A stretch of 64,000 bases of DNA. Origin: an uncultured Micavibrio sp. Its GTDB lineage: Bacteria; Pseudomonadota; Alphaproteobacteria; Micavibrionales; UBA2020. Positions 9,735-57,918 of this stretch are shown here, piece by piece (the first letter of the stretch is position 1; every line of letters begins with the position of its first letter). The stretch covers positions 6,849-70,848 of the forward strand of contig CAZNRN010000006.1 in the NCBI GenBank assembly GCA_964575605.1. Reading direction: 5' to 3'. The notes beneath the pieces are model-generated. The model worked only from the letters and a program-made list of their open reading frames with translations, made no database searches and was not told the origin of the DNA. The position numbers were made by a program, and so were the translations under genes.

Positions 9735-12047
9735 ATGAAGCATAACCTCAAAATCGCGGAACAGCAGGTTCCGGTGGCGGCTGATCTTCCGCCGCCGCGC
9801 CGCAAATCCGTGTCGAAACAGATGCAGGAAAGGTTCGAGAACCGCAAGATATGGCGGCGCACGCTTTCCTTCGCCTATATCGCCCTGCTCTGCGTATACC
9901 TGGGCTGGCGCTTCACCATCATCAACCCGCAATCGCTGGCGCTTTCGATCCTTTATTACGCGACTGACGTGATGGCCTTCCTGCTCAGCGTCACCTCCAT
10001 CGTCATCGTCTGGGATTACAGCCACCGCGAACCGCCACCCGCGCCGCAGGGCAAGACCGTCGACGTCTTCGTGCCGGCGTACAAGGAGCCGATCAACATC
10101 ATCCGCCGCACGGTGATGGCAGCGAAGGCGATATCATATCCGCATGAAACCTGGCTGCTCGACGACGGCAAGCGCGACGAATTGAAAGCCCTTGCGGCGG
10201 AGCTGGGCGTGCATTACCTGCGCCGCCCCGACAACCTGCACGCCAAGGCGGGGAACCTGAATTACGCGCTGAAGCATTCGACGGGCGAATTCGTCATGAG
10301 CTTCGACGCCGACCATATCGCGCAGCCGCATGCGCTCGACGTCACGCTGGGATTTTTCGCGGATGAAAAGGTCGCGCTGGTGCAGACGCCGCAGGATTTT
10401 TATAACACCGAGGCCTTCCAGTACATGCCCGCCAAACGCACCGGCGGCCTGTGGCACGACCAGTCGTATTTCTACAGCATCATGCTGCCGACGGGCGACG
10501 CGGTGAACGGCGCCACTTGCGTCGGCACGGGCGTCGTTTACCGCCGCAGCGCGCTCGAGCACGCAGGCGGCATCCCGACAGACACCGTGACCGAAGACCT
10601 GCACACATCGCTGAAGCTGCACCTGAAAGGCTACAAAACCGTCTACCTGAACGAGCCCATCGCCTATGGCATCGCGGCCGTGGACCTGGCCGAATTCACC
10701 ACCACGCGCCTGCGCTGGGGCCATGGCAACCTGCACGTGCTGGCGCATGAAAAAATCCTCACCTGCAAGGGGCTTACCTTCCGCCAGCGCCTGCAATATA
10801 TCGCCATGGCGCTTTACTATGTGGAAGGCATCCACCAGATGCTGCTGCTGGGCATTCCCATCATTTCGCTGATGACCGGCCTGCAGCCCTTCACCATCAC
10901 CATCTTCAACGTGCTGGTGGTGACGGTATTCCCCATTTTTGCCTATTTCGTGCTGCAGGAAATGGGCTGCGGCTTCTCGCGCCACTGGGCGAACGAGATT
11001 TTCAGCATGGCGCGCTGGCCCATCCTCGTGCGCTCCTGGGCGGGCATTACGCAGCGCCGCATACCATTCCGCGTATCGTCGAAAGCCATGAAGGGCAAAA
11101 CAGGCTGGCACCTGATGGTGCCGCAGCTGGCGGTGATTGTGCTAAGCCTCGCTGCGCTCGCTGCGGGCATTTACAAGCTGGACGGCCATTACGAATTCGG
11201 CCCGCTGTTCCAGTATATCGCCGGCATTTTCACCGGCCACATCCCGCAGGGCGTCGACGTGCATGCGGTGCTGAAGGGCGGCTATACGCTCGACTTCATC
11301 GGCATCGCGGGCTTCTGGGCGATCTATGGCGCCTGCCGCGCAGGTTATTTCGTGTGGAAGACATGGTCGGATGCGCGCAACAGCCACGACTTTTTCCGCT
11401 TCAAATTGCCGCTGCCCGCCAGCATCGACGGCGCGCCCGCTGGCCGCGTCAATGTCATCGCCGAAGACTGGGCGCGCATGGATATTTATCCCGGCCGCCC
11501 TGTCGCGCTGGGTGACGAACTTGCCGTCTCCGTCCACCTGCCCTCGGGGCCGCTGCCTCTGAAATTGCGCGCCGAAAAGATATCCGGCGGCGCGGTGGAG
11601 GGCCATCTGGCCTGGGAAGGGGAGGCGCAGCGCGACAAATTGGCCGCCGCGCTTTATTCCTGTGATTGGCACCGCGAATTCCTGACGCGCAACGCCTATT
11701 TCGTCACGCCGTCTGACGTTCTGCTCTCCTGCATCAGGCTGGAATCGCCCTTTACCGTGAAATACGGAGAATGGCAGGCAGCCCTGCTGGAGATACCCGC
11801 CGGAAATCCCCCCGCCGAAAAACTCTATGCCATTGCCGCGCCGCTTAAAAAGGACCCCGGGCGGGGCTCGCTGGTGACTTTCGGTTATTTCGCGCCGGGG
11901 ACGCGGATGACGGCACGGTTATTCACGGCCGGCGGGTTAAAGGACGCCATTTTCGACATTATGGAAGAAGAGGCGGTATCCTCCCTTATCCAGAAGGGTC
12001 TCGACGGCGCCACGCCCCGCCGTTACGCCATTAAAATAGTTGCGTAA
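9735..12047 (+). CDS. Processive GT2 polysaccharide synthase, cellulose synthase BcsA-like, with degenerate PilZ-like C-terminal region
   Basis: VDVFVPAYKEP, LLDDG, HAKAGNLN, FDADH, VQTPQDF, VTEDL, TRLRW (QxxRW position), multiple TM helices. Confidence 0.85.
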   Translation: MKHNLKIAEQQVPVAADLPPPRRKSVSKQMQERFENRKIWRRTLSFAYIALLCVYLGWRFTIINPQSLALSILYYATDVMAFLLSVTSIVIVWDYSHREPPPAPQGKTVDVFVPAYKEPINIIRRTVMAAKAISYPHETWLLDDGKRDELKALAAELGVHYLRRPDNLHAKAGNLNYALKHSTGEFVMSFDADHIAQPHALDVTLGFFADEKVALVQTPQDFYNTEAFQYMPAKRTGGLWHDQSYFYSIMLPTGDAVNGATCVGTGVVYRRSALEHAGGIPTDTVTEDLHTSLKLHLKGYKTVYLNEPIAYGIAAVDLAEFTTTRLRWGHGNLHVLAHEKILTCKGLTFRQRLQYIAMALYYVEGIHQMLLLGIPIISLMTGLQPFTITIFNVLVVTVFPIFAYFVLQEMGCGFSRHWANEIFSMARWPILVRSWAGITQRRIPFRVSSKAMKGKTGWHLMVPQLAVIVLSLAALAAGIYKLDGHYEFGPLFQYIAGIFTGHIPQGVDVHAVLKGGYTLDFIGIAGFWAIYGACRAGYFVWKTWSDARNSHDFFRFKLPLPASIDGAPAGRVNVIAEDWARMDIYPGRPVALGDELAVSVHLPSGPLPLKLRAEKISGGAVEGHLAWEGEAQRDKLAAALYSCDWHREFLTRNAYFVTPSDVLLSCIRLESPFTVKYGEWQAALLEIPAGNPPAEKLYAIAAPLKKDPGRGSLVTFGYFAPGTRMTARLFTAGGLKDAIFDIMEEEAVSSLIQKGLDGATPRRYAIKIVA

Positions 12048-12164
12048 TTGCTACACTTCCACTCCGAGTTGCGCGACGAGCCCTGACAGCCGTTAACCTT
12101 GCCCTGCGGATAGATTATGGTCTTTCCAGTATAATAAGAACCAAGCTTCGAAAGGGCACATCAG

Positions 12165-12875
12165 ATGAAAACCAAATTTCTTGCAACTCTCCTCGCGGGC
12201 GCCATGCTGCTCGCACCCGCCGCGGCGAAAGCCGACTCTTCCGGCGTCTGGGCCGGCGCCGATTTCGGCCCCGACAGCTATTTCCTCTACCTCGGCGGCG
12301 TGACCGCCCTGCAAAACCAGGACATCCGCACGCAGGACGGCTTCCTGCTGCGCGGCAGCCTCGGCTTCGGCAACTATGATTACGATACGCCCGCCGTTCC
12401 CGGCGGCAACGTTGACTCCGACGTGTTCAGCGGCGACCTGATGGTCGGTTACGGCCACCACTTCGGCCCCCACACGCTCAGCTTCTACGCCGGTGGCGAG
12501 TTCCAGAACCACGATCCCTCGCCGAACGATCCCGGCAACAGCGTTGACGGCACCGAAGGCGGCGTGAAAGCGCAGCTGGAACTTAACGCGCATCCCGCCG
12601 AGAACTGCGTGCTGGACCTCGCCGGCAGCTACTCGACGGCTTTCGACAGCTACTGGAGCCGCGGCTTCGCCGGCTATGACTTCGGCCCCGTCACCATCGG
12701 CCCCGAAATCGGCTTCCTCGGCAACGAGGAATGGGACCAGGTCCGCTTCGGCGCTTCGGCCGGCGACGTCGACCTCGGCTTCGTCAACGCACGCGCTTAT
12801 GTCGGCTATGCCAACAACGACGGCCAGGGCGACGACGGCATGTACGGCGGCCTTGCCTTCGGCAAAGGCTTCTAA
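12165..12875 (+). CDS. Outer-membrane beta-barrel, cellulose biosynthesis protein BcsS-like
   Basis: Signal peptide, alternating beta-strand pattern (VWAGADF...YLGGVTAL...DGFLLRGSLGFGNYDY), C-terminal Phe; lies next to the BcsA-like gene. Confidence 0.65.
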   Translation: MKTKFLATLLAGAMLLAPAAAKADSSGVWAGADFGPDSYFLYLGGVTALQNQDIRTQDGFLLRGSLGFGNYDYDTPAVPGGNVDSDVFSGDLMVGYGHHFGPHTLSFYAGGEFQNHDPSPNDPGNSVDGTEGGVKAQLELNAHPAENCVLDLAGSYSTAFDSYWSRGFAGYDFGPVTIGPEIGFLGNEEWDQVRFGASAGDVDLGFVNARAYVGYANNDGQGDDGMYGGLAFGKGF

Positions 12876-12877
12876 GC

Positions 12878-13372
12878 CTGACAAGATACTCCGTCACACG
12901 GCGGAAACTTTTGAAAACGCTCCTCGCGCTCGGCGCGGGGGGCGTTTTTCTTTCTGCGCCCGTGGCCGGCAGGGTTTGCGTGGCGCTGGCCGAAGGGCCT
13001 TTCACGTTTGAATCATTTGTGGTGCTTTCCACCCTCGTCACCATGCAGGGCAAGCTCGATATCGCGACCGCGCATCGTATCCATGATGTGCTTCAGAAGG
13101 AACCTGGCGCGCCGGATTACATGGCCGCCGTTTACGCCAAACTCTCGCGCGCGTTGCGGGGCGGCGGTGCGGAAAAGCTGACGGAAGGGGAGGCGTGGTT
13201 CGCAGACCACCTGCTGAAAATCTGGTATCTTGGCATTTATTATCATGAAAGCAGCCCGCCGCTGCGCCTTGCCTATGATACCGCGCTGATGTTCCGCGCG
13301 GGCGGCGGCGTCATCCCCGTGCCGCTCCTCGAAAACGCGCCCTTTGGCAGCTGGGCGGAAAAACCCGCATGA
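12878..13372 (+). CDS. Tat-exported small (gamma) subunit of an FAD sugar/polyol dehydrogenase; probable CTG start
   Basis: TRRKLLK twin-arginine signal with ALA cleavage site; C-terminal LLKIWYLG...LAYDTALM...P...FGSWAEKP; overlaps the GMC gene by ATGA. The only ATG/GTG/TTG codons upstream of the RR motif lie deep inside the bcsS-like gene. Confidence 0.7.
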   Translation: MTRYSVTRRKLLKTLLALGAGGVFLSAPVAGRVCVALAEGPFTFESFVVLSTLVTMQGKLDIATAHRIHDVLQKEPGAPDYMAAVYAKLSRALRGGGAEKLTEGEAWFADHLLKIWYLGIYYHESSPPLRLAYDTALMFRAGGGVIPVPLLENAPFGSWAEKPA

Positions 13373-14970
13373 GCGCCGAAAAAATCACCGCTGAAGTCGC
13401 CATCATCGGCTCCGGCGTCGCGGGTGCGATGGTCGCGTGGAAACTGGCCAGCCTCGGCATCAAAAACATCGTGATGGTCGAGGCGGGGCCGCGCATCAAG
13501 CGCGGCGATATCGTGGAGGGGTTTAAAGCTTCGCCGCTTACCGATTTTTCCGCGGGCTACCCGAACACCGCGCATGCGCCGCGCCCCGACTGGAACAATA
13601 AAGACAAGCCCTATATCGACAACATCGGCGCGGTCGCGGCGCGCACCGAATATATCCGCGCCGTCGGCGGCACCACCTGGCACTGGAGCGGCATCACGCC
13701 GCGTTTCCTGCCCGCGGATTTTCGCCTCAAAAGCGAATACGGCGTCGGCGTCGACTGGCCTGTCGGCTATACGGCGCTGGAGCCTTTTTATACGGAAGCG
13801 GAAACCGAAATGGGCGTCGCTGGCGACGATGGCGAGGATACGGGCGCGCCGCGCTCCGCCAAATATCCGCTGCCGCCCGTGCCGCGCAGCTACAGCGACA
13901 AGCATATCGTCGGAAAACTGCAGGGTATGGGGCTTGATTTCATTACGTGCCCCGCAGCACGCGCAACGAAACCGTACCGCGGGCGCGGGCAATGCCAGGG
14001 CTTCGGCACCTGTTCACCCATTTGCCCCAGCGGCGCGCAATATGGCGCGGTCTATCATGTCGAGGCCGCGGAAAAGCTGGGGGTCAGGGTGATCGGCAAC
14101 CTGCGCGCCGACCGCATCGTCGCGAAAGACAGGGCAACGCAAATCACCGCCCGCCGTCCTGATGGCGCAGAGGTGAATATCACCGCAAAAATCTTCGTGG
14201 TCGCGGCAAACGGCATCGAAACGCCGCGCCTGCTGCTGATGTCAGCGGGCGAAAGCGTGCCTGCGGGCATCGCCAACAGCTCGGGCGCGGTGGGACGCAA
14301 TTTCATGGATCACCCGTCGATTTTCTGCTCGCTGCTGCTGAAGGAACCCGTCTGGCCGGGGCGCGGGCCTGAAACCATTATCGCCAGTAATACCTATCGT
14401 GACGGTGCATTCCGGCGCGAAAGGGCGGGCTGGATACTGGGCGTCGGCAACCGGGCGGATTTTCACAACACCACCGATAGCCTGCTGGCGCAGGGTGTTG
14501 CGCCGCGGGATTTGCAAGGGCGCATCCGCGATCAGCTGCAGCGGCAGGTGGGCCTCTCGGCCAGCCTCGAACAGCTGCCCGATGCTGGCAACGGCATCAC
14601 GCTCGACTGGGGCAGGCGCGATACGGCGGGGCAGCCCGTCATCCGCCATGCCTATTCCTATAGCGATTACGAACGCAAGGGCTACGCCCACGCCAAGGCT
14701 GAGCTGGAAAAGGCAGCTAAAGCGCTCGATGCCGATATCGTCTGGATGTCGCCGCTCTCGGCCGTCAGCCACCCGATGGGTATGGCGCGGATGGGGGATG
14801 ACAAAAAAACCTCGGTCACCGACAGCTTCGGGCGCTGCCACGACCATGCGAACCTTTTTATCGCAGGCAGCGCGCTGTTCCCGTCAAGCTCCGCCGCCAA
14901 CCCGACATTGACGATTGCGGCGCTCGCGGTGCGTACGGCGGGCGAGATCGCACGTCAGCTTAAATCATAA
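13369..14970 (+). CDS. GMC-family FAD oxidoreductase, large subunit of a glucose/sorbitol-dehydrogenase-like enzyme
   Basis: GSGVAG FAD motif, AVGGTTWHW, Cys cluster CQGFGTCSPICP, GRNFMDH, HPMG, NPTLTIAAL; no signal peptide. Confidence 0.9.
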   Translation: MSAEKITAEVAIIGSGVAGAMVAWKLASLGIKNIVMVEAGPRIKRGDIVEGFKASPLTDFSAGYPNTAHAPRPDWNNKDKPYIDNIGAVAARTEYIRAVGGTTWHWSGITPRFLPADFRLKSEYGVGVDWPVGYTALEPFYTEAETEMGVAGDDGEDTGAPRSAKYPLPPVPRSYSDKHIVGKLQGMGLDFITCPAARATKPYRGRGQCQGFGTCSPICPSGAQYGAVYHVEAAEKLGVRVIGNLRADRIVAKDRATQITARRPDGAEVNITAKIFVVAANGIETPRLLLMSAGESVPAGIANSSGAVGRNFMDHPSIFCSLLLKEPVWPGRGPETIIASNTYRDGAFRRERAGWILGVGNRADFHNTTDSLLAQGVAPRDLQGRIRDQLQRQVGLSASLEQLPDAGNGITLDWGRRDTAGQPVIRHAYSYSDYERKGYAHAKAELEKAAKALDADIVWMSPLSAVSHPMGMARMGDDKKTSVTDSFGRCHDHANLFIAGSALFPSSSAANPTLTIAALAVRTAGEIARQLKS

Positions 14971-14982
14971 AATGCGGGATTA

Positions 14983-17900
14983 TTAATTAACCTTCATCCA
15001 CTTGTCGACGATCGAGCGTGTGTCGTAGTAAGTGGGGCGCAGTTTCTTGACAATGTCCGACAATGCGTCGAGCGGGAAGTTTTCCTTCGCCTGACGCTCG
15101 AGCCTTGCGCCAAGGTCTGACAGACCGGTGAGGCCGAAGTTGGAGGTCATGCCCTTGATGTCGTGGCCGCGGCCGATCAGGGCCTTCATGTCTTTTTCCT
15201 CGATCGCTTTCTCGGCGGCGGCGATCAGTTCCTCGGTCTTCTGGTAGAGGCCGTCCATCATCTCGTTCATCGCGTCGTTGCCGAGGCTGGCTTTCAACCC
15301 GCCCAGCATATCGGCGCTGAACAGGCGCTGCTGCTCCGCCGTCAATACCATCGGCGCCGCTGCGGCAGCAGGGGCAGCGGGCGCGGCGGTAGCCGGAGCA
15401 GCGGGCGCGGGCTCAGCTGCAGCTGCGGGTGCAGGTGCAGCCGGAGCCGGAGCGGCTGGCGCAGCGGGTGCAGCGGGTGCGGGGGCAACTGCCGCGGGGG
15501 CGGCTGGTGCAGGTGCAGGCGCCGGAGCCGGAGCCGGAGCCGGAGCAGCAGGGGCAACCGGCGCTGCCGGCGGTGCAGCCGGAGCGGGCGCCGGGGGCGC
15601 CGGTGCCGGTGCCACGGGCGCCGCAGCGGCGGGCTGCGCGGGCGGGGGCGGCGGGACGGCGTTCGGGTATCTTTTCTTGGCCAGCGCGATCAGCAGTTTG
15701 CGCAGCGCCTCGGGGTTCACGGGCTTGGTCACGAAATCGTCCATGCCCGCGTCGCGGCAGCGCTGGATGTCTTCCTTGCGCGTATTCGCGGTCATGGCGT
15801 AGACGGTGGTTTTCGCTTTTTGCGCATCGGGCAGGCGGCGGATCATCTGCGTCGCGGTTACGCCGTCGATCTGCGGCATCTCCATGTCCATCAGCACGAC
15901 GTCGAAGACCGGCTTTTCCTTGATTTCGGCCAGCGCCTGTTCCGCGCCGCCGACGGTGATGATCTTGTGCCCGTCTTTTTCCAGCAGGCCCGCCACGACG
16001 CGCTGGTTGATGACGTTGTCGTCGACAACCAGGATCTTCATCGGCACGATGCCCTGCTCGACGCGCTGCTGCGCCTGCTGCGCCTCGGTGATGCCGTAGT
16101 CGAGCGCGAGGATGAAATAGAAAACCGTGCCCTCGCCGGGCTTGGAGGCGATCTGGATCGACGAGCCCATCGCTTCGACGAGGCGTTTGCAAATCGAAAG
16201 GCCAAGGCCCGTGCCGCCGAACTTGCGCGCGGTCGAGGCGTCTGCCTGCTGGTAGGGCTGGAACAGTTTTTTCTGCTGGTCTTCGGTGATGCCGATGCCG
16301 GTATCCTTCACGCCGAAATAGATACGCGGTTTTTTCGCCGTCTTGTCATGCACCTTCACGACCAGCGTCACGCCGCCCTTGTCGGTGAACTTGATGGCGT
16401 TACCGATCAGGTTCAGGAAGATCTGGCGCAGGCGCGTCGGGTCGCCTTTCAGCGCGGCGGGCAGGTCGGGGTCCATCTCCGCCTTGACGTAGATTTTCTT
16501 TTCCTCGGCGCGGCCCGACATCAGCAGCACGACGGATTCGACCAGGCGGACGAGATCGAAGTCGATGTTCTCGATCGTCATCTTGCCTTCCTCGACCTTC
16601 GAGAGGTCAAGGATGTCGTTCAGCATCACCAAAAGCGCATCGCCCGAGTATTGTATGGTGCGCGCGAATTCTTTTTGCTTTTCGGTCAGCGTGGTGTCGA
16701 GCAGCAGGCGGATCATGCCCATGATGCCCGTCATCGGCGTGCGGATCTCGTGGCTGATGACGGCCAGGAAGTCCGATTTCGCCTTGTTCGCGGTCTCGGC
16801 CGCTTCCTTGGCGCGGCGCATGGCCTGCGCGCGCTCGGCCTCGCGGTTCTTCAGGTCGGCCTGCAGTTCTTTTTCACGCTGCAGGATGCCCAGCAGGCGC
16901 GTCTGGTCGGCCAGTTCCTTGGTCTTGCGCAGCTCTTCCGCCTCTTCGCGGCGGCGCTTCATTTCGGCCTGCTCCTGCCGCGTCATTTCCTCGGTCAGCG
17001 CAAGGTGGCGCAGTGCGGCGAAGGACAGTACGGAAAGGTGCAGGATAAAGCATATCCAGTAAAGGTTGGCGGTTGCCGAGGAATAGCCGAGGATGCCGGA
17101 CAGCGTCAGCTCGGTCGCAAGGCCGCCGATCAGCAGCACCGCCCAGGAAAAGGCCAGCGGCATGGCCTGCGGGCGGTTGCCTTTCATGACGGCCATCACG
17201 CCCAGCGCCAGGAAAACGGCAGGGAAGATGATGGGGCCGAGGCGCACGAAGATAGTCGATGAAACGCCCGACACCGCCTCGATCAGCGAGAAGATGGCGA
17301 TCACTGCCACCGACACCGACACGATATTGAGGATAACGCGCACCTTGTCCTTCTTGTCGCGCGTCATCAGCGTATGGCGCGCCAGCGCAGCCGCGACCAG
17401 CGCCGAAAACGCGTAGAGCAGGTCGATATATTGCGCCGCCGTGTTGTTGCCATAGGGGACGAGGTCGTCGGAGGCCGTGAAGATGCAGTATTGCGTCGCC
17501 GTGTAGAGGATCAGCAGGAAGGGCGCCGCCTTGCGGAAGTTGATCCAGAACATCAGGAAGATGCAGGAGATGACGATCGTCGTGATTTTCAGCACGTTAT
17601 TCTGCAGGCCGCTCTGGTCGAGCGCGCTGGTGAAGGAGCCCTGTTCGACCAGTTCCGGCTTGAACGATATGGCGATGCCGGCCGAGGGTTCGATCTGGAT
17701 GCCGATGATCTTGGTCTTGCCGGGCTCAAGCGTGACGGGCAGCGCGTTGCGTTCCTGCCCCATCAGGTGCAGCTTGTTCTTCACGCTGCGGCCGTCCTGC
17801 ATCAGCGGCATGTCGGGGTAGAGGTCGGAATAGACGGCGAACTTGCCCGCGACGCCGACCGTCCCGCCCATGCGCGAGCCAAGGTCAAGCACCCAGCGGC

Positions 17901-18342
17901 TCTTGCCCTGGTTGCGGTTGTAAACGCTGAAGACCACCCATTTGGTGGTCGTGCCGTAGCCGATGAAAAGCTGGTCGCCGTCCTTCGGCGTTTCGCCCTG
18001 TCCCTGCTTGTATTGCATCAGGATTTCGCGGAAGGTCATCTGGCCGGTGGTATCTTCGAAAACCTTCGCCTGCGGCGCAACCGGATAGGCCGAGGCCTTG
18101 CTGGAAATGTAGATAGGTTTGAACAGCTGGGGCTGCTGTTGCTGCACGGGCGCCTGTCCGATGCCGGGCGCGGGCGCCATCTGCGTCACGGCCTGCGCCA
18201 GCATCTGGCTCGGCACGGCGGCCGTGGAGGCAGCGGGCTTCGACGGCGCTGCGTTTTGCGCATGCGCCGTTACGCCCCCCGTCACGAGCACCAGCACAGC
18301 CAACAGGCATCCGACATAAGCTCTCAACCAAACCCCCAGCAT
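14983..18342 (-). CDS. Hybrid sensor histidine kinase: periplasmic domain + 7TM (7TMR-DISM-like), HisKA, HATPase, REC, Pro/Ala linker, HPt
   Basis: SHEIRTPM H-box, NLIGNAIKFT, DTGIGI, GGTGLGL, REC LVVDDN...LMDMEMP...KP, HPt GHDIKGMTSNFG. Confidence 0.93.
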   Translation of the reverse strand: MLGVWLRAYVGCLLAVLVLVTGGVTAHAQNAAPSKPAASTAAVPSQMLAQAVTQMAPAPGIGQAPVQQQQPQLFKPIYISSKASAYPVAPQAKVFEDTTGQMTFREILMQYKQGQGETPKDGDQLFIGYGTTTKWVVFSVYNRNQGKSRWVLDLGSRMGGTVGVAGKFAVYSDLYPDMPLMQDGRSVKNKLHLMGQERNALPVTLEPGKTKIIGIQIEPSAGIAISFKPELVEQGSFTSALDQSGLQNNVLKITTIVISCIFLMFWINFRKAAPFLLILYTATQYCIFTASDDLVPYGNNTAAQYIDLLYAFSALVAAALARHTLMTRDKKDKVRVILNIVSVSVAVIAIFSLIEAVSGVSSTIFVRLGPIIFPAVFLALGVMAVMKGNRPQAMPLAFSWAVLLIGGLATELTLSGILGYSSATANLYWICFILHLSVLSFAALRHLALTEEMTRQEQAEMKRRREEAEELRKTKELADQTRLLGILQREKELQADLKNREAERAQAMRRAKEAAETANKAKSDFLAVISHEIRTPMTGIMGMIRLLLDTTLTEKQKEFARTIQYSGDALLVMLNDILDLSKVEEGKMTIENIDFDLVRLVESVVLLMSGRAEEKKIYVKAEMDPDLPAALKGDPTRLRQIFLNLIGNAIKFTDKGGVTLVVKVHDKTAKKPRIYFGVKDTGIGITEDQQKKLFQPYQQADASTARKFGGTGLGLSICKRLVEAMGSSIQIASKPGEGTVFYFILALDYGITEAQQAQQRVEQGIVPMKILVVDDNVINQRVVAGLLEKDGHKIITVGGAEQALAEIKEKPVFDVVLMDMEMPQIDGVTATQMIRRLPDAQKAKTTVYAMTANTRKEDIQRCRDAGMDDFVTKPVNPEALRKLLIALAKKRYPNAVPPPPPAQPAAAAPVAPAPAPPAPAPAAPPAAPVAPAAPAPAPAPAPAPAPAAPAAVAPAPAAPAAPAAPAPAAPAPAAAAEPAPAAPATAAPAAPAAAAAPMVLTAEQQRLFSADMLGGLKASLGNDAMNEMMDGLYQKTEELIAAAEKAIEEKDMKALIGRGHDIKGMTSNFGLTGLSDLGARLERQAKENFPLDALSDIVKKLRPTYYDTRSIVDKWMKVN
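15352..15666 (-). repeat. Low-complexity Pro/Ala coding repeat (about 105 aa) between REC and HPt
   Basis: PPPPPAQPAAAAPVAPAPAPPAPAPAA...PAAAAAP in the kinase frame. Confidence 0.9.
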
Positions 18343-23591: not shown

Positions 23592-24710
23592 ATGCCTGAC
23601 GTCGAGATCCTCGCCAATCCCGAAGCCCGCCGCGTGCTCACCGCGCGCCCCGGCAAGGAATTGCCGCAGGATGTCTACGACAATCTTGCCAAGCGCCTCT
23701 CGGCCGTCGCGGGCCGCAGCGAGCCCAAGGGCGCCGGCTTTTACGGCGTCGACCTCAACAACGGTTACCGCAGCATTTTCACCTTCAACAAGGACCACCA
23801 GCCGGTGCTGGTTTACGTGGGCGACCACGCGGGCTACGAAAAGCTGTCGCGCGAAATCGCCAAAGACGCCGACAAGGTGCGCAGCAACTTCCTGAAGGAA
23901 ACGCCCGAGAAGGTCACCATCAGCTCGAAAAAAGCGCTCAAGAGCCTGACGTTCGAGGAATTCCGCCACAGCTTCCTGCAGGAAACGGGCAAGACCGATG
24001 TGCTGGCGAAAGAAGCCAAGGCCGCGGCCGAGCTTGCCGAAAATGCCGGCCGGGGCGGGCGATTTATCAAGGGCATCAAGGGCGGCGCGAAGGTTGGCGG
24101 CAAGGTTTTAAAGGTCGTCGCCGTCGGCGTGGTCGCGGCGGAAATACTCGGCCTGACCGAAAAGGCCGAGGCAGCTGAACTTGACGGCCGCCTGCCGAAG
24201 GGCGCGGTCGACGAATACAAAAAGATCCTTGCAGGGCAGGGCGCGACCGTGCTTGACCCGACTTTCATCGGCGGCGAAATCGCCGTGCAGTCGTCCTATA
24301 TGGACTGGGCGAAAAAATACCTGAACGGCAACGCGCAGCTGGAAGCGGAACTGCGCCCCTCCAGCATCCTTGAATCTCTCGGCATGCCCATGCCGACGGT
24401 GGCGGAGGAAAAACGCTCCGAATTCTACCGCAGCGTGCCGGACAAAGAGGCGCCCGGCATGACGGCCGAGATGCGCGAATTCGTGAAGGCGAAACAGGAA
24501 ATCCACAAGGCCTGCGACGCGCTGATGAAACAGAAGACAAGTTTCTGGGGCGCGCTGGCGCAATCGGGCGGCCAGGTGCCCGACGAAGCGCTCTACCCCG
24601 CCGAGGTCAAGGCCATCGACGACGCGCAAAAACGCTTCAACGATTTGTACCAGCGTAAAATCGAAGGCGCAGCACCCGCAAGGCCCGCGCAGTCCGCACC
24701 CGGACGTTAA
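23592..24710 (+). CDS. Hypothetical 372-aa protein with putative N-terminal RelE/ParE-like domain
   Basis: Residues ~1-90 follow the RelE pattern (EILANPEARRVL...GFYGVDLNNGYRSIFTF...VLVYVGDHAGYEKL); Gly-rich hydrophobic segment mid-protein. Confidence 0.7.
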   Translation: MPDVEILANPEARRVLTARPGKELPQDVYDNLAKRLSAVAGRSEPKGAGFYGVDLNNGYRSIFTFNKDHQPVLVYVGDHAGYEKLSREIAKDADKVRSNFLKETPEKVTISSKKALKSLTFEEFRHSFLQETGKTDVLAKEAKAAAELAENAGRGGRFIKGIKGGAKVGGKVLKVVAVGVVAAEILGLTEKAEAAELDGRLPKGAVDEYKKILAGQGATVLDPTFIGGEIAVQSSYMDWAKKYLNGNAQLEAELRPSSILESLGMPMPTVAEEKRSEFYRSVPDKEAPGMTAEMREFVKAKQEIHKACDALMKQKTSFWGALAQSGGQVPDEALYPAEVKAIDDAQKRFNDLYQRKIEGAAPARPAQSAPGR

Positions 24711-31518: not shown

Positions 31519-32090
31519 TTCCCTGCCTCCACCGCGTCCTTCAACCGGTAAAAAGTGCTGTTCTCGCGGTCTTCCACCACCAGTTCCAGCTTGCCTTTCA
31601 GCGTCACGGGGTCGTAGGAGAAAGCGACCGGCTTTTTGTCCGCATGCACCTCCAGCACCAGCGACGGCGCGACGTGGTAATGGAAGGGGCAGCCGACAGG
31701 GAAGGGGCCCAGCAAAAATTCCTTCTGCTTTTCCTCCGCCCCCAGCGGGAACATGAAACCCTTGATGGTCACTTCCTTGCCGTCAAGCGCCTTTACCTCC
31801 TCGGTAAAGCCCGGCTTGAAATACTGGAAGTCATAGCCATCCTTGTCCTTGCCCTCGACGTTCTTTTCCTTCGTCGCGCCAAGCACCCGCCAGTCGAGCG
31901 CGCCTTTTGGCGTGTCGACATAGTTCTTGGCAAGGTCCTTCAGCGACATGTTGCCGCCGCTGAGGTCGATGGTGCCAAGGTCGACCGTGCCGGTCACGGT
32001 CATGGTTTCGTACGTGTACTCCTCCTTTTTCAAGGCGAAGGCCGGCGTGGCGCAGCAAAGCAGCAGTAAGGCAAAAACAACCTGTTTCAT
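31515..32090 (-). CDS. DUF3299-like exported protein (second copy)
   Basis: Signal peptide; LDWRVL, ALDGKEVTIKGFMFPL, EFLLGPFPVGCPFHYH, PVTLKGKL. Confidence 0.8.
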   Translation of the reverse strand: MKQVVFALLLLCCATPAFALKKEEYTYETMTVTGTVDLGTIDLSGGNMSLKDLAKNYVDTPKGALDWRVLGATKEKNVEGKDKDGYDFQYFKPGFTEEVKALDGKEVTIKGFMFPLGAEEKQKEFLLGPFPVGCPFHYHVAPSLVLEVHADKKPVAFSYDPVTLKGKLELVVEDRENSTFYRLKDAVEAGK

Positions 32091-32100
32091 GGGCCCCCCT

Positions 32101-33468
32101 TTACCCTCGTCCCCTGGCCAGCAAGGCCGCAATATCGGTGCGCGCGGCGGACAGCGCGGGCACGACACCCGCGGTGATGCCGACGCCCGCGCCCAGCGCC
32201 AGCAGCAGGGCGTCCAGCGACGAAAGCTGCAGCAGCGTGGCAGGCAGGACGATGCCGCGCAGGCTTTCCACCTGCACCGCGACCGTATAGGCCGCAAGAT
32301 GGCCCAGCACGATCCCGGCGGCCGTCCCCGCCAGCGACAGCGCCGCACCCTCGCACATCACCGTGGCGAAAAGCGCCGCAGGGGAGGCGCCCAGCACGCG
32401 CAGCACGCCAAGGTCATAGCGCCGCGCCGCCAGGCCCGAGGCCAGCGCCGAGAGCAGCATCAGCCCCGACAGCGCGATAAAGCCCAGGCCAAGCACGCCC
32501 AGCACATCGCGGCCCATGCCCATCATCGACGCCAGCCGTGCGACTTCGTAGGCGGGGCTTGCCGCCTGCAGGCCCGATTGCGCGTTGATCTGCCGTGGCA
32601 GGCTCATCACCGCCATGGGGCTCCTCGTCTTCAGCAGCAGCGCGGTGATTTGATGCTCCGGCGCCTCGCCTTCGTCATGATCATGATCGTGGTCTTCATG
32701 CGCATGGTCATCATCGCCGTCGTCATGGTGATGTTCCGCGGCTTCGTCGTGGTCATGGTCTTCATGGTCGTGGTCTTCATGCGCATGCTCGTCGTCGCCA
32801 TCCTCATGATGGTGGCCTTCCGCCTCCTCCTCGCCTTCATCCCCGTCATCATGGTGATGATGGTGGTGATGCAGCTCCTGGACGCTCTTGACCGATGTCA
32901 CGATCAGCCGGTCCAGCACAGTGCCGGTGGGCGCAAGGCGCCCGGTGATTTTATACAGGTGGTCCTTGTGGATATCGGTGCTTTCCGCCGACAACCCGTG
33001 CGCGCCCGCGAAACTGTCGCCGGTGTTCAGACCGGTCGCGGCGCCCGCCACGGCTTCGAAGGGGGCATCGAAAACCTTGCCCTCCGCCAGGCTGCCGCCC
33101 AGCAGGCTGATATATTCCGGCGTCGTGCCCGCAATGCGGAAACCGTGGTAATTGTCGCCCAGCGCCAGCGGGATCGCCTCTTTTACCTGCGGGTTATGCG
33201 CGATTTTATCGGCATCGTCGGCATGGATGTTACCGGTCGGCACATCGGCGTGGTAGATGGTCGACAACACCAGCTGCAGCGGGCTGCCTTTGGCGCCCAC
33301 CACGATGTCGATGCCCTCGGCGTTGCGCGCGAAACCGCGGTTCACCGATTGCGACAGCAGGAAAATGGCGCAGAGCAGCGCCACGCCCGCGGCCGCCGCC
33401 GCAAAGCAGAGGAAGGATTGCATCTTGCGCGTGCGGATGGACGCGATGGAAAGGGAAAGGGGGTTCAT
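32101..33468 (-). CDS. FtsX/MacB-like ABC permease (ZrgC/PA4065-like) with His-rich insert
   Basis: DIVVGAKGSPLQLVLSTIYH..PTGNI, AIPLALGDNYHGFRIAGT, C-terminal RRYDLGVLRVLGA + TM helices. Confidence 0.9.
   Translation of the reverse strand: MNPLSLSIASIRTRKMQSFLCFAAAAAGVALLCAIFLLSQSVNRGFARNAEGIDIVVGAKGSPLQLVLSTIYHADVPTGNIHADDADKIAHNPQVKEAIPLALGDNYHGFRIAGTTPEYISLLGGSLAEGKVFDAPFEAVAGAATGLNTGDSFAGAHGLSAESTDIHKDHLYKITGRLAPTGTVLDRLIVTSVKSVQELHHHHHHHDDGDEGEEEAEGHHHEDGDDEHAHEDHDHEDHDHDEAAEHHHDDGDDDHAHEDHDHDHDEGEAPEHQITALLLKTRSPMAVMSLPRQINAQSGLQAASPAYEVARLASMMGMGRDVLGVLGLGFIALSGLMLLSALASGLAARRYDLGVLRVLGASPAALFATVMCEGAALSLAGTAAGIVLGHLAAYTVAVQVESLRGIVLPATLLQLSSLDALLLALGAGVGITAGVVPALSAARTDIAALLARGRG
32653..32871 (-). 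repeat. His/Asp/Glu-rich coding tract (73 aa) with internal duplication
   Basis: HHHHHHHDDGDEG...HHHEDGDDEHAHEDHDH...HHHDDGDDDHAHEDHDH...EH. Confidence 0.92.
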
Positions 33469-34118
33469 GCGGCCTCGCTTGCCCGCCCGTCAAGGCGGAT
33501 GATGGTGGTGAAGTTTTTGGTGATGCGCGCGTCATGCGTGGCGACGACAAGCGCGGCCCTGGTGTCCTCGGCCTGCTGCGTCAGCAGCCGGATGACGGCC
33601 TCCGCATTGGCGTCGTCGAGCGCCGAGGTCGGCTCGTCCGCCACCAGCACTTTCGGGCGGTTCAGCACCGCGCGGGCGATGGCGCCGCGCTGCTGTTCGC
33701 CCTGGCTCAGGGCATCGGGCCTGCGGTGCGCCTTGGCGCCCAGGCCAAGGCTTTCCAGCAGCGCGTCGATGCGTTTTTCATCCCGCGGCGCGCCCGCCAT
33801 GTCGGCCGCCAGCGCGACATTCTGCCGCAGGCTGAGCGAGGGCAGCAGGTGCAGCGACTGGAATACGAAGCCGAAATTGCGCCCGCGCAATGTGTCGCGC
33901 GCGCGGGGCGGCAGGGCGTAAATATCGCTTCCCTCGAACAGCGCCTTGCCCGCGGCGGGCTGCAGCAGCCCCGCCATCACGGACAGCAAGGTGGTTTTGC
34001 CCGAGCCGGAAGGGCCCAGGATGGCAAGGCGTTCGCCCGCCTTGATCGTCAAATCAGGGAATTCAAGCGACGGCGCCGTGCCGCGCACGACGCGGATCCC
34101 GCGTGTTTCAAGAAGCAT
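33465..34118 (-). CDS. ABC ATP-binding protein (LolD/ZrgB-like)
   Basis: GPSGSGKTTLL, FVFQSLHL, LSQGEQQR, LVADEPT; ATGA overlap with the permease. Confidence 0.93.
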   Translation of the reverse strand: MLLETRGIRVVRGTAPSLEFPDLTIKAGERLAILGPSGSGKTTLLSVMAGLLQPAAGKALFEGSDIYALPPRARDTLRGRNFGFVFQSLHLLPSLSLRQNVALAADMAGAPRDEKRIDALLESLGLGAKAHRRPDALSQGEQQRGAIARAVLNRPKVLVADEPTSALDDANAEAVIRLLTQQAEDTRAALVVATHDARITKNFTTIIRLDGRASEAA

Positions 34119-56422: not shown

Positions 56423-57238
56423 TTAGCCCATCCCGGTTTTCGGCTTCGCAGGCGCGGTGGAGCGGGTTTCTTCGGTTTTGGGGAATTCGACGGGGCAGGT
56501 CTTGTAGCTGGGGTCGCGGATGAACTCTTTCATGACGGCCAGCAGCTGCTTGTCTTCTTCCGCCTGCTTGCGCTGCGCTTCTTCCCAGGCACGGCGCTGG
56601 GCTTCGACGGGCTGCTGCACAAGGTGCGCGTGGCCGTCCTTGTCCAGCGTGATGGCGCCGCTTTTCAGCGCGTCCTGCACAAATTGTTTGGCGAAGCCCA
56701 TGCGGCTGAGGACCTCGAACTTCATCAGGTTGGGCGCGACGAAGGGGTTTTTCTCAAGCGCGGCGTAATCCGTCGGCGTGAAAACCTCGGGGGTGGCCTG
56801 GCGTTCCTTGTATTCGAAATACTTTTCAATCAGGCGGCCCTGCTGCTCGAGGTTATAGTCCTTGAAATCCTTTTTCGGGTCGAGCTTGAATTCGTATGTG
56901 GAGGCGTAATTGCCGAAGCTCGAGATGCCGAGGCCGAGGCCTTCCAGCTGCGGGTCGCGGCCCTGCTGCTTCTGCCAGACGTGCGTCATTTCGTGCATGA
57001 ACAGGCTGCGGCGGAAACCCGTCGAATAGTCGTCCTGATAAATGGCGGTGGGGTAATACATGTTGCCGTCGGGCGTCATGGCCGTGTTGTCGTCCTGCCC
57101 GATGGGCGGGTAATGCCTGTGGTAGAGCCGCACCTTGCTGTAATCGATGCTGTTGCCGAAGACGGTTTTGGCCATCTCGATCTCGCCCTTTGTCAGCGGG
57201 CGGCTTTCGCCGTACTTGATATTAGGCTCGTCACCCAC
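56423..57238 (-). CDS. HExxH zinc-metallopeptidase-like protein (DUF4157/Rhs-VgrG-associated type) with C-terminal extension
   Basis: RPLTKGE..MAKTVFGNSIDY, TAMTPDG, LFMHEMTHVWQ, DYNLEQQ; GTG start preceded by aagggg. Confidence 0.78.
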   Translation of the reverse strand: MGDEPNIKYGESRPLTKGEIEMAKTVFGNSIDYSKVRLYHRHYPPIGQDDNTAMTPDGNMYYPTAIYQDDYSTGFRRSLFMHEMTHVWQKQQGRDPQLEGLGLGISSFGNYASTYEFKLDPKKDFKDYNLEQQGRLIEKYFEYKERQATPEVFTPTDYAALEKNPFVAPNLMKFEVLSRMGFAKQFVQDALKSGAITLDKDGHAHLVQQPVEAQRRAWEEAQRKQAEEDKQLLAVMKEFIRDPSYKTCPVEFPKTEETRSTAPAKPKTGMG

Positions 57239-57327: not shown

Positions 57328-57918
57328 CTATTTGACTTTGGGCGGTTTTGGTTTTTTCGGATTGGTGGGGAAAGCGTCGCGTTTCGCATAGGCGGGGTCG
57401 GCGATGAACTTTTCCAGCACTTTTTCGAAGAGGCGTTTTTTCTCGGCGTCGTCGCAGTGGCTGTCCTTGCAGTTGCCCCAGAACTGGTACGCGCCGCCTT
57501 CCTGCTTCATCGCGAAATAATCCTGCACGATGCTGGCCTGCTGCTCCATGTTGTAGTCGATAAGGTCTTTTTTCTCGTCGAGCTTGTACGGGTAAGCCGC
57601 GGCGTAGTTGAAGCCGTGGGAAAGGTTGAGGCGCACGGCCTCGGCCATCGGCGCCAGCACCTTGTTCTGGTACTGCCAGACATGCGTCATTTCGTGGACG
57701 AAGAGCGCCTTCCAGTAGGTGTCCTCTTTCGAATAGTCATCCTTGTAGCAGCCCGGCATGAAGAGGTGGCCGTTCGGCGCCATGGCCGTGCCCTCGGGCA
57801 GCATCGACAGCGCCATGAATTTCTCGTCCGAAATCGTGATGCTCTTGTAATCGAGGCTGTTGCCGAAAACGGTTTTGGCAAGCGCGGTTTCACCGGGGGT
57901 GAGCGGGCGGGCGGGCAT
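57328..57918 (-). CDS. HExxH zinc-metallopeptidase-like protein, tandem paralog
   Basis: RPLTPGE..LAKTVFGNSLDY, TAMAPNG, LFVHEMTHVWQ, DYNMEQQ. Confidence 0.8.
   Translation of the reverse strand: MPARPLTPGETALAKTVFGNSLDYKSITISDEKFMALSMLPEGTAMAPNGHLFMPGCYKDDYSKEDTYWKALFVHEMTHVWQYQNKVLAPMAEAVRLNLSHGFNYAAAYPYKLDEKKDLIDYNMEQQASIVQDYFAMKQEGGAYQFWGNCKDSHCDDAEKKRLFEKVLEKFIADPAYAKRDAFPTNPKKPKPPKVK

Follow-up and report, generated by a model that had tools for sequence, protein, structure and literature searches.

Four adjacent genes encoding a cellulose-synthase-like enzyme, a small predicted outer-membrane barrel and a two-subunit periplasmic sugar dehydrogenase are conserved together in many uncultured proteobacteria. 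This conservation suggests that these genes constitute an undescribed pathway, in which a sugar polymer is made and is oxidised on its way out of the cell. The functional coupling of the synthase, barrel and dehydrogenase is well supported by the analysis, whereas the oxidation of the glucan is an inference. No paper in the literature library searched describes this combination.

Gene organization of the cassette

The window is a 64,000-nucleotide stretch of DNA from an uncultured Micavibrio sp. (GenBank assembly GCA_964575605.1, contig CAZNRN010000006.1, positions 6,849 to 70,848 of the forward strand). A sequence-only reading of this window reported four co-oriented genes for a processive GT2 synthase, a BcsS-like barrel, a Tat small subunit and a GMC large subunit, without the usual cellulose partners BcsB, BcsZ and BcsC. 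This observation is confirmed, because all four ORFs exist with the spacing described and belong to the families named. Their positions are summarized in Table 1. No BcsB, BcsZ or BcsC family was found among the large window ORFs tested, which do not include every ORF of the window.

Table 1. Positions of the four genes and their sequence features in the window
Feature	Position	Strand	Size	Remarks
BcsA-like processive GT2 synthase	9735-12047	+	770 aa	ATG start; 2 N-terminal TM helices, GT-A domain, about 4 further TM helices with interface helices, PilZ-like beta-barrel (about aa 560-626), second C-terminal beta domain (about aa 681-768)
GT2-BcsS spacer	12048-12164	+	117 nt
TATAAT	12130-12135			Within the spacer
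BcsS-family outer-membrane protein	12165-12875	+	236 aa	Sec-type signal peptide (MKTKFLATLLAGAMLLAPAAAKA), predicted 12-stranded beta-barrel, C-terminal Phe
BcsS stop codon	12873-12875			2 nt before codon 12878
Gamma (hitch-hiker) subunit	12878-13372	+	164 aa	CTG start
Twin-arginine motif T-R-R-K-L-L-K	12896-12916			In gamma subunit
TTG codon	12911			Start in the automatic gene call
ATGA overlap	13369-13372			Gamma and alpha subunits
Alpha (catalytic) subunit, GMC-family FAD dehydrogenase	13369-14970	+	533 aa	No signal peptide of its own
3Fe-4S cysteines C209/C215/C219	13993-14025			In alpha subunit

The start codons of the GT2 and gamma subunit genes were examined by comparison with homologues. 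The ATG of the GT2 gene is supported by the N-termini of its homologues. The gamma subunit gene starts with CTG. This start is supported, because homologues start M-x5-[ST]-R-R exactly at this position, and because the closest relative, the locus L035, also has CTG there, while its equivalent of the TTG codon in the window is TTA. The automatic gene call at the TTG codon would cut off the twin-arginine motif.

To examine whether the TATAAT in the spacer is part of a promoter that allows separate transcription of the synthase gene, as the sequence-only reading proposed, the spacer was scanned for promoter-like and terminator-like sites and compared with that of L035. Neither type of site was found. 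The TATAAT has no acceptable -35 and is not conserved in L035, whereas GAT(A/G)GATTATGGT and the region before the start codon are conserved. In addition, GT2 and BcsS overlap by 4 nt in one relative. The internal promoter is therefore not supported.

Conservation of the cassette in other genomes

To examine whether the arrangement is an accident of this genome, which had been set beforehand as a condition that would refute the reading, the neighbourhoods of homologous genes were compared. The same four families sit together in at least eight unrelated genomic contexts, in Alpha- and Betaproteobacteria and in one AT-rich genome. They are adjacent in the window and L035, in the lineage comprising the loci L003, L004, L031, L032 and L040, and in the loci L006, L007, L033, L038 (Betaproteobacteria), L039 and L042, with unrelated flanks. 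The gene order is rearranged into two divergent pairs in L039. One locus has 2 GT2 and 3 GMC copies, and the copy numbers of GT2 and GMC expand together in L033. L042 adds two fusions of a GH8 domain (BcsZ family) to a GSDH domain (PQQ aldose dehydrogenase family), which provide a second and unrelated link between beta-1,4-glucan processing and sugar oxidation. All seven close GMC homologues looked up (50-62% identity) lie next to GT2 and BcsS. In addition, 31 contig sizes are shared between the lists of the top 120 homologues of GT2 and of GMC. The arrangement is therefore not an accident of this genome, and its recurrence makes the functional coupling of synthase, barrel and dehydrogenase well supported.

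GT2 and BcsS also occur as a pair without the gamma and GMC subunits in other lineages. The GT2-BcsS pair is thus the core, and the dehydrogenase is a clade-specific addition. The barrel is therefore tied primarily to the GT2, rather than to the dehydrogenase as the sequence-only reading proposed. None of 12 related cassette loci shows BcsB or BcsC within 7-10 kb. Likewise, no CxxCH-containing ORF other than spurious overlaps, and hence no cytochrome c subunit, is found within the flanks of 7-10 kb of 11 cassettes.

GT2 synthase

The GT2 protein hits Pfam Glycos_transf_2 and Cellulose_synt, and its best solved relative is E. coli BcsA (E 2e-66). The AF2 model of this protein (pLDDT 87.7) matches BcsA structures, including 9b8v_E and 4p00_A, with E values of 1e-37 to 1e-42 and aligns to them over 650-700 columns with a TM score of about 0.65, such that the BcsA architecture with the GT domain on a TM channel is present in the model. 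However, the protein scores only 295.6 bits against the curated BcsA cut-off of 699.1 bits (TIGR03030) and 253.3 bits against that of 992 bits (NF008558). The motifs DAD, TED, HAKAGNLN and QTPQ are kept, but QxxRW is T-R-L-R-W (aa 324-328) and the gating loop is F-R-V-S-S-K (aa 445-450). The position of this Gln is occupied by Thr or Val in the long-type GT2s of the loci compared, and Thr is nearly invariant in an alignment of 33 sequences.

To examine whether the C-terminal region is a PilZ domain that binds c-di-GMP, it was searched for PF07238 and for the RxxxR and (D/N)xSxxG motifs. No PF07238 hit is obtained even at E up to 10, and both motifs are absent. In the model, however, a beta-barrel occupies the PilZ position, and the L042 homologue just reaches the PilZ cut-off (22.7 against 22.5 bits). 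The domain is therefore probably a degenerate PilZ. Thus, the GT2 folds like BcsA in the model, but is not a bona fide BcsA.

BcsS

The BcsS protein hits PF17036 (CBP_BcsS) at 141.1 bits against a cut-off of 24, over residues 28-232. This family has 1,215 clusters at 50% identity with E up to 1e-10. The AF2 model (pLDDT 89.6) has 12 strands. Its best Foldseek matches are the KdgM porin, the COG4313 channel, FapF and autotransporter barrels, and the best of these is KdgM (4fqe; E 1e-5; TM score 0.50 normalised to the query and 0.66 to the target). The resemblance to KdgM is structural only, because only PF17036 passes its cut-off, PF13505 is below its cut-off and no KdgM family hit is obtained.

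Dehydrogenase subunits

The gamma subunit hits PF12318 (FAD-SLDH), and its alignment with homologues shows M-x5-[ST]RRx[LI]x[KQ]TLLALGAG. The alpha subunit hits GMC_oxred_N/C and matches the B. cepacia FAD-GDH alpha subunit at E 2e-120. According to the residue roles in the structure of the B. cepacia enzyme (PMC6719666), it keeps the covalent-FAD His (H105, in TTWHW), the 3Fe-4S cysteines (Cys-x5-Cys-x3-Cys) and the catalytic pair of H468 and the Asn in ANPTLT. In 29 cassette homologues, the three Cys and H468 are invariant, H105 is at least 90% conserved and the Asn of the catalytic pair is also conserved, suggesting that the enzyme is catalytically intact. However, the two Asn residues that position glucose in the B. 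cepacia enzyme (N474 and N475) are Val and Ser, and Cys213, which forms an inter-subunit disulfide, is Gln.

Comparison with known systems

The cassette resembles the Bcs cellulose secretion systems (BcsA-BcsB-BcsZ-BcsC, types I-III) in that the GT2 has the BcsA fold in the model, a membrane channel, the D/DxD/TED/RW catalytic motifs, a gating loop and a C-terminal beta-barrel in the PilZ position, and in that BcsS was named as an accessory of such operons. It differs from them in the deviations of the GT2 described above, including the presence of only 2 N-terminal TM helices, in the lack of the BcsB and BcsC genes in the loci examined, in the lack of BcsZ in the window cassette and most relatives, and in the attached dehydrogenase, which no described bcs type has. 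The BgsBA-TolC mixed-linkage beta-glucan system of Sinorhizobium meliloti also uses a BcsA-like GT2 that works without BcsB or BcsC, lacks a recognisable PilZ and relies on a non-Bcs outer-membrane protein (PMC5567048, PMC13438883). However, the cassette has no BgsB-like membrane-fusion protein, its outer-membrane partner is a predicted 12-stranded barrel encoded in cis rather than TolC, and BgsBA has no redox enzyme.

The dehydrogenase resembles the membrane-bound FAD-dependent sugar dehydrogenase complexes (B. cepacia FAD-GDH gamma-alpha-beta, Gluconobacter fructose dehydrogenase, and sorbitol and gluconate dehydrogenases). The alpha subunit matches at E 1e-113 to 1e-120 over its full length, the cofactor and catalytic residues are kept, and a Tat-signal gamma hitch-hiker is encoded just upstream with a 4-nt overlap. 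It differs from these complexes in the lack of a tri-haem cytochrome c (beta) subunit in any of the 11 cassettes, in the substitutions at Cys213, Asn474 and Asn475, and in that its genes are embedded in a polysaccharide synthase locus rather than standing as a free respiratory operon. BcsS resembles the KdgM/NanC family of 12-stranded porins for acidic oligosaccharides in size (about 215 mature residues), strand number and best structural match. However, KdgM imports pectin fragments, whereas BcsS is genomically tied to a synthase. Glucoside 3-dehydrogenase of Agrobacterium and Halomonas is a periplasmic FAD/3Fe-4S catalytic subunit with a small Tat hitch-hiker, which acts on glycosides and disaccharides and uses a separate cytochrome c, and is not known to be linked to a synthase. 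It would be a two-subunit precedent for acting on glycosidically bound sugars, but only as a lead.

Possible function of the cassette

The most probable explanation, with a probability of roughly 0.5, is that the cassette is a self-contained envelope module. In this view, the inner-membrane GT2 polymerises a beta-glucan from a UDP-sugar, most likely UDP-glucose, and threads it reducing end first into the periplasm without a BcsB partner. BcsS, exported by Sec, would be the dedicated outer-membrane partner of this synthase family and act as a narrow channel or an anchor for a single chain. The alpha subunit would fold in the cytoplasm, be carried through Tat by the gamma subunit and, as a soluble periplasmic dehydrogenase, oxidise a hydroxyl of the nascent glucan or of oligomers cut from it. 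The preferred site is the reducing-end C1, giving an aldonolactone or aldonate end, because the nearest solved enzyme oxidises C1 of glucose and accepts maltose, and its active site was compared with that of cellobiose dehydrogenase (PMC6719666). Electrons would leave through the 3Fe-4S cluster to an acceptor that is not encoded in the cassette. Of these steps, the fold and motifs of the GT2, the barrel, the export route and the cofactor residues of the dehydrogenase are established by the analysis at the level of sequence and structure models, whereas the substrate of the GT2, the role of BcsS, the activity and substrate of the dehydrogenase and the electron acceptor are inferred without biochemical or expression evidence, and no RNA runs hold this sequence.

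The interpretation of the sequence-only reading, which includes the inference that the glucan or its oligomers are oxidised in the periplasm before or during export, is partly supported. The gene identities, the tight coupling, the absence of BcsB/Z/C from the window within the scope given above, and the novelty of the pairing hold up, but the chemical claim remains an inference from context, which gains some independent support from the GH8 fusions of L042. The explanation as a self-contained envelope module is also supported by the tight packing of the genes, with a 2-nt gap and an ATGA overlap, and by the best match of the 12-stranded BcsS model to KdgM, a porin for acidic oligosaccharides. 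Several results limit this explanation. The substitution of the glucose-positioning Asn residues leaves the regiochemistry and even the substrate of the dehydrogenase as predictions by analogy, and relatives in the same family oxidise secondary alcohols (fructose, sorbitol and gluconate). No electron acceptor is encoded nearby. GT2-BcsS pairs work without the dehydrogenase in other lineages, so that oxidation is not essential for synthesis or export. A 12-stranded barrel is smaller than the proven polysaccharide exporters described so far (16-18 strands), so that BcsS may not be a conduit. The Thr in place of the Gln of QxxRW means that the product may not be cellulose.

Other explanations are less likely. 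It is unlikely, but possible, that the dehydrogenase makes in-chain 2- or 3-keto-glucosyl residues, as glucoside 3-dehydrogenases do, which destabilise the glycosidic bond, such that it replaces BcsZ as the activity that cuts or releases chains rather than decorating the final product. The absence of GH8/BcsZ from the window cassette and most relatives, the fusion of GH8 to a dehydrogenase domain in the one variant that has it, the oxidation of secondary alcohols by members of the family (PMC6719666) and the loss of the glucose-positioning Asn pair of the C1-oxidising enzyme are consistent with this possibility. However, no lyase, hydratase or reductase partner of the known oxidative glycoside-cleavage routes is conserved next to the cassette, and L042 keeps gamma/GMC as well as GH8, so that the two are not simple substitutes. 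Slightly less likely is that the polymer is not a beta-1,4-glucan, but a homopolymer of another linkage or another sugar that is modified by the dehydrogenase. Q to T/V in QxxRW and F-R-S-S-x-K instead of FxVTxK are fixed in the long-type clade, the protein scores far below the curated BcsA cut-offs, and BgsA shows that BcsA-like enzymes without BcsB or PilZ can make mixed-linkage glucan (PMC5567048). In contrast, cassettes with the canonical QRLRW/FxVTxK short-type GT2 carry the same BcsS-gamma-GMC partners, and GH8 domains accompany one of them.

It is similarly doubtful that BcsS is a KdgM-like uptake channel for sugars or oligosaccharides that the dehydrogenase oxidises for energy, with the GT2 linked only through its own use of BcsS or through co-regulation. 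The best structural match of BcsS is an uptake porin, and gamma-alpha-type dehydrogenases are classically respiratory sugar oxidisers (PMC6719666). However, BcsS is found with the GT2 even where no dehydrogenase exists, so that its primary partner is the synthase, and all close homologues of this GMC clade that were examined sit beside GT2. Furthermore, there is no cytochrome c subunit to couple to respiration in the cassettes examined, and no transporter or kinase for oxidised sugars is conserved nearby. Least likely is an ordinary cellulose system, in which BcsB, BcsZ and BcsC are encoded elsewhere and the dehydrogenase is an unrelated neighbour. This possibility rests on the restriction of the analysis to 64 kb of this genome and on the listing of BcsS as an accessory of type I bcs operons in reviews (PMC8892547). 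It is disfavoured by the conservation of the neighbourhood across classes and its survival of rearrangement, by the failure of GT2 to reach the BcsA equivalog cut-offs and by the lack of BcsB and BcsC within 7-10 kb at the 12 loci.

Implications

A further reading, which is tentative but compatible with the results, is that the cassette represents a previously unrecognised class of synthase-dependent exopolysaccharide system, in which a BcsB-independent glucan synthase pairs with a 12-stranded BcsS barrel in place of BcsC, and a Tat-exported FAD/3Fe-4S dehydrogenase oxidises the polymer after polymerisation. To our knowledge, this would be the first bacterial exopolysaccharide pathway whose periplasmic tailoring step is an oxidation, rather than acetylation, deacetylation, epimerisation or phosphoethanolamine addition.

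If the coupling is real, it gives the uncharacterised BcsS family a testable role as the outer-membrane partner of a large clade of BcsB-less glucan synthases, and identifies a two-gene minimal synthase/porin unit that could be moved between hosts. It also points to an enzymatic route to oxidised (aldonate-ended or keto) beta-glucans, which are currently made chemically, and separately raises the question of how a 3Fe-4S flavoprotein with no cytochrome subunit is re-oxidised in the periplasm. The cassette is common in uncultured Alpha- and Betaproteobacteria from bioreactor, soil and freshwater metagenomes, so that it may contribute to biofilm matrix chemistry there.

Gene identities and spacing

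Four co-oriented ORFs occupy positions 9735-14970. The first ORF hits the Pfam families Glycos_transf_2, Glyco_tranf_2_3 and Cellulose_synt (GT2), and its best solved relative is E. coli BcsA (E 2e-66), although only residues 49-490 align. The second ORF is a clear member of PF17036 CBP_BcsS (141 bits, cut-off 24). The third ORF hits PF12318 FAD-SLDH, the small (gamma) subunit of membrane-bound FAD dehydrogenases. The fourth ORF is a GMC flavoprotein, which matches the alpha subunit of B. cepacia FAD-glucose dehydrogenase (6a2u_B, E 2e-120) and the large subunit of Gluconobacter fructose dehydrogenase (7w2j_A, E 5e-113) over its full length. The spacing reported in the sequence-only reading, a gap of 117 nt followed by a gap of 2 nt and an ATGA overlap, is correct. 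The cassette is flanked upstream by alaS, a prolyl oligopeptidase gene, ndk and sodC, and downstream by a convergent gene for a hybrid histidine kinase, which contains a 7TMR-DISMED2/7TMR-DISM sensor, HisKA, HATPase, receiver and Hpt domains and a long Pro/Ala-rich linker. The sequence comes from a bioreactor metagenome. The DNA runs that contain the region are also bioreactor metagenomes, and no RNA run contains it. The coordinates of the features in the window and in the related loci are summarized in the table.

Coordinates of the features in the window and in related loci
Sequence	Position	Strand	Feature
Window	9735-12047		GT2, 770 aa
Window	10704-10718		TRLRW of GT2, residues 324-328
Window	12130-12135		TATAAT between GT2 and BcsS
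Window	12165-12875		BcsS, 236 aa
Window	12731		ATG, rejected as gamma start
Window	12878		CTG, preferred gamma start
Window	12911		TTG, automatic gamma start, rejected
Window	13369-14970		GMC (alpha) subunit, 533 aa
Window	14983-18342	-	7TMR-DISM hybrid histidine kinase
Window	23592-24710		ORF, 372 aa, without Pfam family
Window	31927-33921		ORF, 664 aa, without Pfam family
Window	56423-57238	-	ORF sharing an N-terminal segment with its neighbour
Window	57328-57918	-	ORF sharing an N-terminal segment with its neighbour
L004 (JBBRVE010000006.1)	11247-12831		record labelled Bdellovibrionales; GMC gene split by a frameshift near 11806-11813
L010	4840-5955		histidine kinase with N-terminal PilZ domain
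L033	3871-14835		expanded cassette
L042	1883-3109		membrane protein, 408 aa
L042	3176-5623		GH8::GSDH fusion, first of two paralogues (815 and 820 aa)
L042	6918-9380		GH8::GSDH fusion, second of two paralogues (815 and 820 aa)

Elsewhere in the window, the two adjacent ORFs on the - strand share an N-terminal L-T-x-G-E-x-x-x-A-K-T-V-F-G-N-S-[IL]-D-Y segment, and the one tested has no Pfam hit at E up to 0.001. The ORFs of 664 and 372 aa are well supported by third-position GC, but have no Pfam family at E up to 0.001.

Start of the small subunit and the spacer

No ATG, GTG or TTG lies between the BcsS stop and the twin-arginine motif of the gamma subunit. To examine where this subunit starts, its sequence was aligned with those of its homologues. 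The homologues begin with M-x5-[ST]-R-R-x-[LI]-x-[KQ]-T-L-L-A-L-G-A-G, and the CTG located two bases after the BcsS stop is aligned with their Met. The closest relative (locus L035, with 81% BcsS identity and the same flanks) also has CTG two bases after the BcsS stop, although the following codons differ. A conserved CTG start is therefore the best reading. The TTG start called automatically is rejected, because it removes the conserved RR motif, and hence the Tat signal, and because it is TTA in L035. The ATG further upstream is rejected as well, because the resultant protein would overlap BcsS by 145 nt and contain an Arg-rich extension that is absent in the homologues.

The sequence-only reading proposed that the synthase may be transcribed separately, because the GT2-BcsS gap contains a TATAAT. 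However, this TATAAT has no -35 partner and is not conserved in the closest relative, and GT2 and BcsS overlap by 4 nt in the Sulfuritalea locus L038. On these sequence comparisons, it is rejected as evidence for separate transcription.

Conservation of the arrangement

To examine whether the arrangement is conserved in other genomes, as had been set beforehand as a test of the proposal, two approaches were taken. In one, a BcsS-anchored scan of one genome per species returned 28 loci (all loci compared are numbered with the prefix L). Search of these loci by tblastn with the window proteins shows GT2-BcsS-gamma-GMC in L003, L004, L005 (in which the contig ends early), L006 and L007. An all-against-all ORF comparison indicates that only these four genes are shared between the lineages. 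L004 is labelled Bdellovibrionales, but its ORFs are mostly 85-98% identical in protein sequence to those of the alphaproteobacterial L003 across the 20 kb, so that the label or the binning is doubtful. In the other approach, close GMC homologues with 50-62% identity (numbered with the prefix P) were looked up, and every one of them lies next to GT2 and BcsS. P0044, P0045 and P0050 are in one lineage flanked by an M48 peptidase and a Band_7 protein. P0040 is in an expanded locus (L033) with two tandem GT2 genes, one BcsS gene, one gamma gene and three tandem GMC alpha paralogues (50-61% identity to that of the window), which implies that one hitch-hiker serves several catalytic subunits. L007 also has two tandem GT2 genes. 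P0108 is in a Sulfuritalea (Betaproteobacteria) MAG, in which GT2 and BcsS overlap. P0116 is in Parvibaculaceae, where BcsS<-GT2 is transcribed divergently from gamma->GMC. P0083 is in the variant locus L042 described below. As a proxy for breadth, 31 exact sizes of contigs are shared between the lists of the top 120 GT2 and the top 120 GMC homologues. This matching is only a proxy for co-location, but is backed by 12 direct look-ups. Linkage that survives change of class, rearrangement and copy-number expansion is strong evidence of functional coupling. The hybrid histidine kinase, which was considered as a regulator of the cassette, is conserved next to it only in L035 and is therefore not part of the module.

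GT2 and BcsS occur without gamma and GMC in four places, Tepidamorphus sp. 3E244 (an isolate), a Hyphomicrobiales MAG, a Rickettsiales MAG and a Xanthobacteraceae MAG, and their neighbours are unrelated. This result indicates that the barrel is tied first to the synthase, and that the dehydrogenase is an add-on in a large subset. In the Hyphomicrobiaceae-type and related loci (L009, L011-L015, L018, L020-L023 and L025-L028), the BcsS homologue (about 170 residues aligned) lies next to a more distant GT2 with A-E-D instead of T-E-D and with Q-R-F-R-W-M, which is usually on the opposite strand. This may be a third kind of BcsS-synthase pairing. None of the cassette loci contains BcsB or BcsC, a result that is limited to these loci and, for this genome, to the 64-kb window, of which not every ORF was scanned against Pfam. 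A search for CxxCH in all cassette loci detects no cytochrome c partner, apart from spurious overlapping ORFs.

A variant with GH8::GSDH fusions

In L042, an AT-rich 2.4-Mb contig with long-read frameshifts, the module consists of GT2, a 408-aa membrane protein, a GH8::GSDH fusion, BcsS on the opposite strand, a second GH8::GSDH fusion, gamma and GMC in this order. The 408-aa protein contains an SGNH-like GDS motif (FFGDSFVFGEG), has no Pfam hit, and is possibly a polysaccharide esterase or acyltransferase. The two fusion proteins are secreted paralogues. GH8 is the family of the cellulase BcsZ, and GSDH is the family of soluble PQQ-dependent aldose dehydrogenases. Such a fusion is not known to have been described. 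It represents a second, evolutionarily independent link between beta-1,4-glucan processing and sugar oxidation in the same neighbourhood. It is the best contextual support for the proposed oxidation, and it also argues that the polymer is a beta-1,4-glucan, at least in that organism.

The synthase

The AF2 model of GT2 is confident (pLDDT 87.7, pTM 0.87) and superposes on E. coli and R. sphaeroides BcsA over 650-700 columns with TM about 0.65. It shows two N-terminal TM helices, the GT domain, further TM and interface helices, a beta-barrel where BcsA has PilZ, and an extra C-terminal beta domain. Nevertheless, the protein is not a curated BcsA, because it scores 295.6 bits with TIGR03030 against a cut-off of 699.1. 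Its QxxRW motif is TRLRW, and its gating loop is FRVSSK rather than FxVTxK. The Thr residue is nearly invariant in a 33-sequence alignment. Across the loci compared, GT2 is either of a long type (about 770 aa) with [TV]-R-x-R-W or of a short type (about 627 aa) with canonical QRLRW and FxVTxK, and both types occur in cassettes with BcsS-gamma-GMC. No canonical PilZ is detected with Pfam even at relaxed thresholds. The L042 homologue just reaches the PilZ cut-off, so that the barrel is probably a degenerate PilZ, and regulation by c-di-GMP is therefore uncertain. In L010, the histidine kinase with an N-terminal PilZ domain lies about 1.5 kb upstream of a BcsS-GT2 pair, and is a possible c-di-GMP input in trans for a synthase that lacks a canonical PilZ. 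BgsA is a precedent for BcsA-like enzymes that lack BcsB and PilZ and use a different outer-membrane protein (PMC5567048; PMC13438883).

BcsS

BcsS has a Sec-type signal peptide and ends in Phe. Its AF2 model (pLDDT 89.6) has 12 strands. The best Foldseek matches are the oligogalacturonate porin KdgM, the COG4313 channel, FapF and autotransporter barrels, all of which are 12-stranded. The family comprises about 1,200 clusters at 50% identity, nearly all of which are stand-alone proteins of about 230-280 aa. BcsS, which was reportedly named in the review by Romling and Galperin (2015), appears only in lists of accessory subunits in the literature searched.

The dehydrogenase

The GMC subunit has no signal peptide of its own, and its N-terminus runs straight into the GxGxxG fold. 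Comparison with the B. cepacia structure, for which the roles of the residues have been reported (PMC6719666), indicates that it keeps His105 (covalent FAD), Cys212/218/222 (3Fe-4S) and His476/Asn519 (catalytic pair). The three cysteines and the catalytic His are invariant in 29 cassette homologues, and the FAD-linking His is at least 90% conserved. In contrast, Asn474/Asn475, which are thought to position glucose, are replaced by Val/Ser, and Cys213, which forms the disulfide to gamma, is replaced by Gln. Judged from its sequence alone, the enzyme looks active and periplasmic, but its substrate and regiochemistry cannot be read from the sequence, and its electron acceptor is not encoded nearby. 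A literature search for subunit data on glucoside 3-dehydrogenase gave nothing usable.

Possible mechanism and relation to known systems

The folds (as models), export signals, cofactor residues, gene packing and conserved linkage are shown by computation. It remains an inference, without expression or biochemical evidence, that GT2 makes a beta-glucan and delivers it reducing end first to the periplasm, that BcsS is its outer-membrane partner, and that the gamma-alpha complex oxidizes the chain or oligomers derived from it. The interpretation in the sequence-only reading, that the glucan or its oligomers are oxidized in the periplasm, is an inference from context. Oxidation at the reducing-end C1 is favoured, because the nearest characterized enzyme is a C1 oxidizer that accepts a disaccharide, because the GSDH domains fused to GH8 in L042 belong to an aldose (C1) dehydrogenase family, and because the best structural match of BcsS carries acidic oligosaccharides. 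However, this preference is weak, and in-chain keto formation leading to cleavage is a serious alternative.

Every part of the cassette belongs to a known superfamily. The combination fits none of the described bcs types, nor does it fit the BgsBA-TolC system or the gamma-alpha-beta dehydrogenase operons. No relevant paper in the literature searched links BcsA-like synthases with GMC enzymes, the one hit being a Botrytis study. The cassette is regarded as a form of synthase-dependent polysaccharide secretion that differs from these systems in its combination of parts, and there is a realistic chance that it represents a new tailoring chemistry.
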